A stretch of 64,000 nt of DNA from Chloroflexota bacterium (GCA_030447245.1 JAUJPG010000004.1:16843-80842), one strand, 5' to 3'; counted from the first letter of the stretch, positions 19,469-20,902 are shown. Translations and numbers: made by a program. Notes: generated from the sequence alone by a model not told the origin.

Positions 19469-19482
19469 GTGGGTCAGTTCTC
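19469..19482. repeat. left terminal inverted repeat of the IS630-family element
   Basis: gtgggtcagttctc preceded by TA. Confidence 0.6.
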
Positions 19483-19558
19483 GCGAGGGTTGCCAAACGG
19501 GTGTGTGCCTGGCATGCTCTGGCGTCCGTTCGGTCGAGCGAGCGGACGGAGGTCAGCC

Positions 19559-20572
19559 ATGGCACGTCCCCAGAAGGCGCGGCTCCGGCCCCTGGCCGAG
19601 ACCGAGCGGACCGCCCTCGACCAGATCACCCGCGCGGGCAGCGAGCGCGCCGACCGCGTTGCGCGGGCCAAGGCCGTGCTGGCGGTGGCCGCGGCCGATC
19701 TTTCACCGCGGCGGCGCAGGCCGCCGGGCGCGTCGGTCGGGCGACGCGGTGGCCCAACTGGTCGCCCGCTTCAATACGGAAGGGCCGACGGCGCTGGAGC
19801 CGCGCCAGGGCGGTGGCCGCGGCGGTGTACGACGCGCCACCCGCGACCGCATCCTGCAGGGTTACCGGCATACGCCGACCGGGAGCGGGACGGCACCGCC
19901 ACCTGGTCGCTGACCACGGTGCAGCGGGCGCTCCGCGCGGCGCCGGACGGGCTGCCCCGGGTGAGCACCAAGACCATTCTGTATACCCTCTGGGATGCTG
20001 GGTATACCTGGCAGCAGAGTCGCACGTGGTGCCAGACGGGACCGGTCGTACGTCAAGCGGAAGGCGGGACCGGTCACGGTCACCGACGCCGACGCCACCC
20101 CAAAGAGCTGATCGAGCGGGCGTACGCGCTCGGGGAGCAGGGCGGGGTGGCGGTCTGGTGCCAGGATGAAGCTGGCCCCTACCAGGCCATCCACAGCCCG
20201 GTCCGTCCTGGCAGCCGCTGTGGGGCAGCCCACCGCCCGGCCGCACGCGTACATCCGCGGGGGCACGGGCCAAGCGAAGGACGCTGTTCCGGCCCGCCAC
20301 GGGCGAGTGCGCGCGAGCCCGCGGCGACGGCCCCAACGCCGTGCTCCATCCCTGGCTCAAGGCGGGAGCTGGTGGCGATCCTGGCGGCCCTGCCGGGCGG
20401 ACGCGGCCGCGGCGGAGGCCACGCGGGCTTGCTGGGAGGCCTGGCAGGCAGGCTTGCGCGAGCGCTTCACCTTGCCGGCCGACCTGCCGCCCCTGCGAGC
20501 GTTGCTCATCTGGGACAACCTGACCGCCACAAGAGCGAGGACCTGGTGCTCTGGCTGTGCGCCCACGGGTGA
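19559..20572 (+). pseudogene. IS630-family transposase, multiply frameshifted
   Basis: MARPQKARLRPLAETERTALDQI (HTH), WSLTTVQRALR, VAVWCQDEAGPYQ and ALLIWDNLTATKSEDLVLWL segments are distributed over three overlapping + frames (track ORFs 19321, 19469, 19503, 20166). Confidence 0.65.
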
Positions 20573-20887
20573 TGCCCTTGTACACGCGCTAGGCGGCTCC
20601 TGGCCGAACATGGCCGAGTCCGTCCAGGCGCATCCTCGTCCGGGCGCGCCCTGGATGGCCACCACCCCGAAACTGCCCAGCAGGTCATGGACCGCTGGCC
20701 GCCACCGTCCGGGGGCTGGAACGCGGCCCCAACCCCGTTCGTCTGGGGCGGCCACCGTCGGCAGCGCCGCTGGCGGGCCCGCCGCCGGCGGCCGCTCGCG
20801 TCGAGCCGCACGGCCTCGGCGGCTCCGCGGCACTCACCCGTCGCCCACTCCCTCGTCGCCGCTCAACGTATGAACGGCTCTGCGCAT

Positions 20888-20902
20888 GAGAACTGACCCA
20901 CC
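20888..20902. repeat. right terminal inverted repeat of the IS630-family element
   Basis: gagaactgacccacc followed by TA; reverse complement matches the left TIR. Confidence 0.6.

Follow-up and report, generated by a model that had tools for sequence, protein, structure and literature searches.

An IS630-family insertion in a Chloroflexota CSLREA gene lies within a block of about 6 kb whose small indels may stem from poor consensus

Introduction

Is a transposase gene that is broken over three reading frames the mark of a decayed insertion sequence (IS), the result of functional frame changes, or the product of a locally faulty base sequence? The question is raised by a 1,434-bp element at positions 19469-20902 of a 64-kb stretch of Chloroflexota DNA, which as a whole is called the window here. 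Frameshifting is documented in the IS630 family (PMC5009743; ISFtu1, PMC1978527), and a first-pass annotation, made from the sequence alone, had described the element as an IS630-family member whose transposase is itself degraded and which was inserted into a CSLREA paralogue already carrying frameshifts. We examined the termini, the transposase, the interrupted gene and the surrounding DNA, and compared them with related loci and with independently assembled contigs.

Results

Termini and target site of the element

The element ends and their flanks are as follows.

19467-19468, no strand: left TA target-site duplication, read from the sequence; the base before it is C, which gives C-TA-G
19469-19482, plus strand: left terminal inverted repeat, GTGGGTCAGTTCTC, unique in the window and complementary at 14 of 14 positions to 20888-20901
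20888-20902, minus strand: right terminal inverted repeat (20888-20901) plus an extra C at 20902 that is present in no relative
20903-20904, no strand: right TA target-site duplication, read from the sequence; the next base is G

The left-repeat motif occurs just twice in the 64-kb window, at 19469-19482 and, as an exact reverse complement, at 20888-20901, and the two form the sole perfect inverted pair found in the region. When the 14-mer was sought in shuffled sequence with up to two mismatches, at least two matches turned up in 6 of 100 shuffles; taken alone, the 14/14 match of the repeats would be only a mildly improbable finding in DNA so rich in G+C. The inverted ends were accepted because all complete relatives checked, from other metagenomes and genomes, have the identical arrangement TA-GTGGGTCA...TGACCCAC-TA; these relatives are 1.38-1.45 kb long including the TA flanks. 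The flanks in the window read ...gcaC-TA/GTGGG...CCCAC(C)/TA-Gcg, a TA duplication within a CTAG target, and the same C-TA/G...C/TA-G context is found in the complete relatives whose flanks were read (L039, L051, L015, L044, L162, and L007). The element entered a CTAG site by cut-and-paste with duplication of the TA. A search for a second copy of the element in the 64-kb window found none.

A 1.43-kb element delimited by inverted repeats with TA flanks, as proposed in the first-pass annotation, is borne out by the 14/14 alignment of the repeats, by the TA on both sides and by the ends shared with relatives. Its right repeat holds for 20888-20901 and has to be shortened by its fifteenth base: the C at 20902 is missing from all relatives and is therefore a 1-nt insertion rather than repeat sequence.

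The transposase belongs to the IS630 family

Two parts of a transposase are recognisable between the repeats.

19559-20111, plus strand: OrfA remnant, the part of the transposase that binds DNA through a helix-turn-helix (Pfam HTH_28, HTH_32, and HTH_29 on the repaired translation)
20105-20889, plus strand: OrfB remnant, which is the catalytic (DDE) part and retains the DD35E residues (Pfam DDE_3; frameshift-aware and nucleotide alignments)

OrfA starts with an ATG preceded by GGAGG and contains six frame-breaking indels, at 19691, 19732, 19818, 19835, 19876, and 20053 in the alignment to L162, an ENA soil contig that carries the closest complete relative (84.8% nucleotide identity across the whole element). 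OrfB has 13 more frame-breaking indels and one in-frame 3-nt deletion, and its stop codon, TGA at 20887-20889, lies partly within the right inverted repeat. As written, the sequence of the element cannot encode a transposase. Translation of the 1,434 bp gives transposase segments across three frames (MARPQKARLRPL..., DGTATWSLTT..., WCQDEAGPYQ..., LIWDNLT..., and NMAESVQ...), as the first-pass annotation had reported. The catalytic residues are retained as the D in WCQDEAG, the D in LIWDNLT and the E in NMAESVQ, with 35 residues from the second D to the E by alignment count.

The repaired window protein was obtained by stitching together translated segments of the three frames. It scores 22.8 bits against Pfam DDE_3, compared to 39.1 bits for L162, and 79-91.1 bits, with 19 unknown residues included, against the NCBIfam model NF033545 (IS630 family transposase), the cut-off of which is 100. 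The fused OrfAB of L162 reaches 112.7 bits, above this cut-off, and also passes DDE_3, so the lineage is an IS630 member; the window protein probably falls under the NF033545 cut-off solely through the damage to this copy. A homologue search with the stitched translation returned 2,715 homologues; among the top ones listed, lengths are 381-458 aa and nearly all have DDE_3. More distant homologues are single fused ORFs. The DDE triad, helix-turn-helix domains, terminal inverted repeats, and TA duplication in CTAG are all present, and the element is a 1.43-kb IS630-family (Tc1/mariner-like, DD35E) insertion sequence. The family assignment with TA flanks thus stands, with the family model passed by L162 and with aligned termini and DDE residues.

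Scans of genome and metagenome collections recovered 160 related loci, most of them in Chloroflexota and Planctomycetota, and the best match in a species-representative collection, with the window peptide patterns as query, was 65% identical. The IS630 subgroup of this element is found mainly in soil Chloroflexota and Planctomycetota. One related copy, L007, will be needed below.

2880-4297 of record YX3bin23 opera_contig_19: related IS630 copy (L007) with nine frame changes and no stops

The genes that flank L007, a GNAT acetyltransferase gene and a pair of small ORFs, are intact. By eye the small-ORF pair has the look of a BrnT/BrnA toxin-antitoxin system and is noted as a candidate.

Close relatives are predicted to use a single -1 frameshift

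In frameshift-aware alignments a -1 shift at the same residue was needed in all 14 close relatives, which come from independent metagenomes, and in four of the five genome loci besides L007; no further shift was needed in 10 of the 14 metagenome relatives and in all four of these genome loci. The shift site of the relatives reads ...CCC AAA AAG AGC TGA or ...GCA AAA AAG GGC TGA, that is, a heptamer (A/C)_AAA_AAG with the OrfA stop one codon 3', and OrfB reads on as GAG CTG ATC (ELIERAY). Relatives that share both the heptamer and the near OrfA stop include L114, L115, L116, L123, L149, and L162. The (A/C)_AAA_AAG motif is present in 38 of 163 fetched loci, and across the wider family the A run at the OrfA/OrfB junction varies from 5 to 10. 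In the 16 close relatives tested, OrfA and OrfB are thus predicted to be joined by a -1 frameshift at (A/C)_AAA_AAG. RNAalifold on 18 relatives gave no conserved stimulatory RNA structure 3' of the slippery site (two pairs, no covariation); the nearby OrfA stop codon may act as a stimulator of the shift.

20098-20111, plus strand: remnant of the programmed frameshift site (alignment to 14 relatives)

At this site the window has CCCCAAAG AGC TGA, compared to CCCCCAAAAAG AGC TGA in the relatives, with one C and two A gone. The run reads CC_CCA_AAG, shorter by 3 nt (a 3-nt deletion after 20101), and no longer forms a slippery heptamer. The earlier remark that the element has more frame changes than the single programmed shift of some IS630 members agrees with these data: the close relatives need one and the window copy has far more.

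The frame changes might still be functional, either as several recoding events or in a non-autonomous derivative that keeps its ends and is moved in trans by intact copies. Both 14-nt termini and the TA duplications are intact, and frameshifting is known in the family (PMC5009743; PMC1978527), as such a reading would have it. Against it, the window copy has nineteen irregularly spaced shifts of both signs at non-slippery sequences, the sole conserved slippery site is destroyed, like lesions run throughout unrelated neighbour genes, and the window holds no second copy. We regard functional frame changes as effectively refuted and give them next to no credence.

The insertion splits a CSLREA gene

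The element lies within a gene on the opposite strand, one paralogue of which is intact elsewhere in the window.

18933-19468, minus strand: 3' part of the interrupted CSLREA/choice-of-anchor-Q beta-helix gene, frameshifted, with its Asp/Asn-rich tail (NCBIfam NF041518; homologue alignment)
20903-21775, minus strand: 5' part of the same gene, frameshifted, with signal peptide, CSLRGAIIEAN motif, and beta-helix repeats (TIGR04214)
46015-47376, plus strand: intact CSLREA paralogue P0122, 453 aa (tblastn, 100% identity over residues 1-453)

The start at 21775 was set by eye; homologue alignments begin at 21735-21753. The repaired host protein scores 61.9 bits against NF041518 and 25.8 bits against TIGR04214 (cut-off 25 each), and its repaired translation has both the N-terminal CSLREA motif and the C-terminal choice-of-anchor Q domain. 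When the IS and one TA are removed, the alignment to intact homologues (447-460 aa) crosses the junction unbroken at about residue 288 of 460. The IS is inserted antisense to the host gene, which encodes a secreted protein, and splits that gene at about two thirds of its length with no host bases lost. P0122 is among the best homologues and is 54% identical to the repaired interrupted gene. The passing domain models and this intact paralogue support the proposal that the insertion is in a CSLREA paralogue. The tail of the interrupted gene (18933-19030, minus strand) is Asp/Asn/Gly-rich (GGGGGGDNDNHGDNEDHGDNGGDNDNDDDNDNF) and is encoded by imperfect tandem repeats of 12-18 nt (family D2).

Frameshift-aware alignment to P0121, P0122, and P0124 places 13 frameshifts and no stops in the host gene. 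The frame-breaking indels amount to 19 per 1.43 kb in the IS and 13 per 1.35 kb in the host gene. Since the indel density of the IS is no lower than that of its host, the lesions either arose after the insertion or are not biological. The host gene does carry about 13 frameshifts, as had been noted, but the word "already" has to be dropped: with an IS indel density at least equal, the host lesions cannot be shown to be older than the insertion.

Small indels extend through a block of about 6 kb

In nucleotide alignment to L162 the window copy has 21 internal indels, of which 19 are frame-breaking and two are in-frame 3-nt deletions. With the C at the tip included (22 indels), 16 are of 1 nt, three of 2 nt, two of 3 nt, and one of 11 nt, and there are 9 insertions versus 13 deletions (9 and 12 among the 21 internal indels). 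Frameshift-aware alignment to intact homologues gives 16-20 frame changes and no in-frame stop, and the repaired ORF, likewise without a stop, has about 80% amino acid identity to L162. Similar lesions are found on both sides of the element.

About 17750-23770, no strand: block whose recognisable genes are all disrupted by small indels (GC3 frame plot, ORF map, Pfam)
About 17.78-18.9 kb, plus strand: RecD-like helicase remnant, 5'-truncated (AAA_30 match, profile positions 89-174 of 191)
About 21.85-22.31 and 23.38-23.83 kb, plus strand: two Uma2-family endonuclease remnants (Pfam fragment match)
About 22.3-23.4 kb, minus strand: remnant of a BNR/Asp-box repeat gene (Asp-box repeats in three frames)
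25307-25522 and 24643-25170, plus strand: small intact ORFs right of the block; one begins MPRFLLEVSDPAFERLTKEAG and by eye has a ribbon-helix-helix look (candidate)

The indel rate in the two genes of the block in which it could be counted, the IS and its host, is about one per 75-105 bp. Between about 17.75 and about 23.85 kb the frame plot of third-codon-position G+C (GC3) changes frame at intervals of 150-750 nt, and elsewhere its runs are mostly at least 1 kb; switching continues less certainly to about 26 kb, where the genes are small. No ORF of at least 250 aa in the true coding frame was found within the block, and the block flanks are clean of such lesions. The helicase remnant is without the first 88 AAA_30 positions, being cut at its 5' end by the start of an intact glycoside hydrolase gene (15813-17690, minus strand), and it has two in-frame stops (GDPD*L and AQSAR*ISAG) and one frame change; it is undoubtedly a natural pseudogene. 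The Uma2 remnants lie about 1.5 kb apart on either side of the BNR/Asp-box remnant and are 75-88% identical in patches; one is interrupted by an in-frame stop, and the second is frameshifted between 23682 and 23713. Pfam searches with four of the six frames of 21.7-26.3 kb matched the Uma2 fragment only, and Pfam and PADLOC gave no match for the ORFs at 23.9-24.5 kb. An apparent paralogue pair at 18.34 and 24.47 kb was rejected, only 19 residues being alike. In a homopolymer census G/C runs of at least 4 were somewhat more frequent in the block, but the block is also G+C-richer.

The description of the transposase as itself degraded, in the sense of damage particular to the IS, has to be given up: the host gene and the neighbours from about 17.75 to 23.75 kb show a similar density of 1-3 nt indels. 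The IS lesions, the short slippery site and the extra C at the tip are probably all part of the damaged block of about 6 kb.

Poor consensus or real decay

Two readings of the block have to be weighed. The first, which we favour with a probability of about 0.55, is that the indels come from a locally poor consensus rather than from a real pseudogene cluster. A repeat-rich stretch would have been left unassembled by short reads, and the gap closed with a small number of long reads during hybrid assembly; the true IS copy may then be intact, and the insertion into the CSLREA paralogue may be the sole real event. The second, a serious contender to which we give somewhat less than an even chance, is that 17.75-23.75 kb is a cluster of dead genes in which the IS killed the CSLREA paralogue and everything then decayed unconstrained. 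Real decay implies about 3-4% substitutions and 1-1.4% small indels since the insertion, and an IS copy made inactive by the loss of its slippery site, by 19 frameshifts and by damage to its right tip. The inactivity that the first-pass annotation judged probable thus holds only if the indels are real.

The shape of the damage argues mainly for poor consensus. The block is contiguous and unrelated genes in it are hit alike; the IS indels are nearly all of 1-2 nt and of both signs, just one of the 22 exceeding 3 nt, and neither the IS nor the host gene, which can be aligned end to end with intact homologues, has a large deletion. These properties also speak against decay, as does the rarity with which free-living bacteria retain heavily decayed DNA. 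No in-frame stop is found in the IS or in the host gene, and their indel densities are similar. For the IS the zero stops are not significant, given that a new stop is expected from only 2.8% of substitutions, and the equal densities are also what parallel neutral decay after the insertion would give. The truncation of the helicase next to an intact gene is not explicable by sequencing error, the left boundary of the block is a real rearrangement junction, and in-frame stops number three in the block, two of them in the helicase remnant and the third in a Uma2 remnant; on these counts decay is the better account.

Substitutions were also compared. When polarised, 86 fall in the window IS lineage and 42 in that of its sister L162, with a similar spectrum; that of the window lineage looks natural (G<->C transversions, 36%). 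Among 150 residues invariant in eight relatives, 15 are altered in the window, compared to 1-7 in each relative. Both the excess of natural-looking substitutions and the excess of changes at conserved residues favour decay over consensus error. The branch leading to the window copy has about twice the length of the sister branch, and the ratio of first plus second to third codon position changes is equal on the two, so that this test does not separate decay from error. Long-read consensus errors are expected to have a substitution-to-indel ratio of 1 or less, and natural mutation in mutation-accumulation studies usually has one of about 5-10 to 1. The ratio implied for the block, with more than 40 frameshifts against three nonsense codons, is about 2-3 to 1, above the usual long-read consensus error and below the usual natural value; it falls between the two expectations and counts in part against each reading.

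Independent contigs and records

Two contigs assembled independently from Illumina run SRR24765285 cover clean DNA on either side. L161 matches window positions 13812-15841 with one mismatch and no gaps, and L165 is 100% identical to 23774-25211. Fewer than 100 nt separate the last detectable lesion from the start of L165 to its right; a short-read contig that begins just beyond the block and matches exactly is expected if the block is poorly assembled and tells against real decay. Within this Illumina-confirmed stretch, two same-frame ORFs at 23940-24530 (minus strand) are split by a single stop at 24141-24143, and may be two genes or a single gene that has acquired a nonsense mutation.

Among the window proteins from the clean parts, 8 of 10 are on record from one NCBI contig of 178,160 bp. 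Of the block ORFs looked up, 3 of 14 are on record, all from the NCBI contig only, as the poor-consensus reading would predict, and two further ORFs are not on record. Exact-protein look-ups recovered no short-read contig from inside the block, and the independent assembly shows no ORF from there, which is a point against decay. Exact-protein negatives say little: start codons are uncertain, and even from the clean parts no more than 3 of 11 ORFs turned up in the independent assembly. The neighbouring glycoside hydrolase, looked up with three alternative starts, was likewise not on record.

The record name of L007, "opera_contig_19", points to the OPERA-MS hybrid assembler, and we guess that its "YX" prefix may denote the same project as SRR24765285. 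With its nine frameshifts, no stops and clean flanks, this related IS supports the view that a hybrid assembly may produce such lesions. An objection comes from the run itself, for which Qaidam Basin desert soil was sequenced PCR-free on a NovaSeq; the one paper tied to it used Illumina reads and MEGAHIT alone (PMC12624003). The same population is thus present in an Illumina-only data set; if such an assembly is the source of the window, an indel error of at least 1% is implausible and the decay is real. Literature searches for hybrid assemblies from the Qaidam Basin site returned nothing relevant.

Discussion

We conclude that an IS630-family element was inserted into a CSLREA gene, and that the small indels of the block in which it lies come from locally poor consensus with the probability given above. 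All explanations other than poor consensus or real decay are, even when taken together, very improbable. The biological import of the insertion is small, as it is one more IS630-family element disrupting one of several CSLREA paralogues. The degraded appearance of the transposase should not be read as biology before the accuracy of the bases across the surrounding 6 kb has been verified. More generally, a locally poor consensus can produce pseudogene and IS-decay calls in metagenome-assembled genomes. The conserved TA-GTGGGTCA termini and the (A/C)_AAA_AAG -1 site should ease the annotation of this IS630 subgroup in Chloroflexota and Planctomycetota.

It seems unlikely that the indels are real in the strong sense that a hyperarid-desert soil bacterium keeps a dead-gene block of about 6 kb decayed almost wholly by gains and losses of 1-2 nt, with a substitution-to-indel ratio of only about 2-3 to 1 and little deletional bias. 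If this were true, such a pattern would suggest that mutation or repair is unusual in this bacterium, with error-prone end joining or slippage in the wake of desiccation damage as examples, and that dead DNA is removed unusually weakly.

The host protein resembles other CSLREA/choice-of-anchor Q proteins (TIGR04214, NF041518) in that it passes both models, and its Chloroflexota homologues are so named; in contrast to them the window copy is interrupted and frameshifted. The element shares with IS630, the prototype from Shigella sonnei in the bacterial branch of Tc1/mariner, the DDE domain with an N-terminal helix-turn-helix, the DD35E spacing, short repeats, a TA in CTAG, and a length of about 1.4 kb. 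Its best complete relative is only 85% identical in nucleotide sequence, and at that identity it would presumably merit its own name under the usual ISfinder convention. The element is a new member of a known family and its architecture is not unusual.

ISFtu1, an IS630-family element of Francisella, has a two-frame transposase joined by a programmed shift (PMC1978527), and the close relatives of the window element likewise need one -1 shift. The window copy differs in having lost the heptamer, and the -1 shift of the relatives is predicted from sequence, with no conserved downstream structure found. The IS630 elements of Roseiflexus, which also belongs to the Chloroflexota, use transcriptional realignment on A runs (PMC5009743), and an A run lies at the OrfA/OrfB junction in both groups. 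In contrast to the Roseiflexus elements, the close relatives of the window element mostly have A5 followed by G. This run is short for polymerase slippage, and ribosomal -1 slippage probably fits better.
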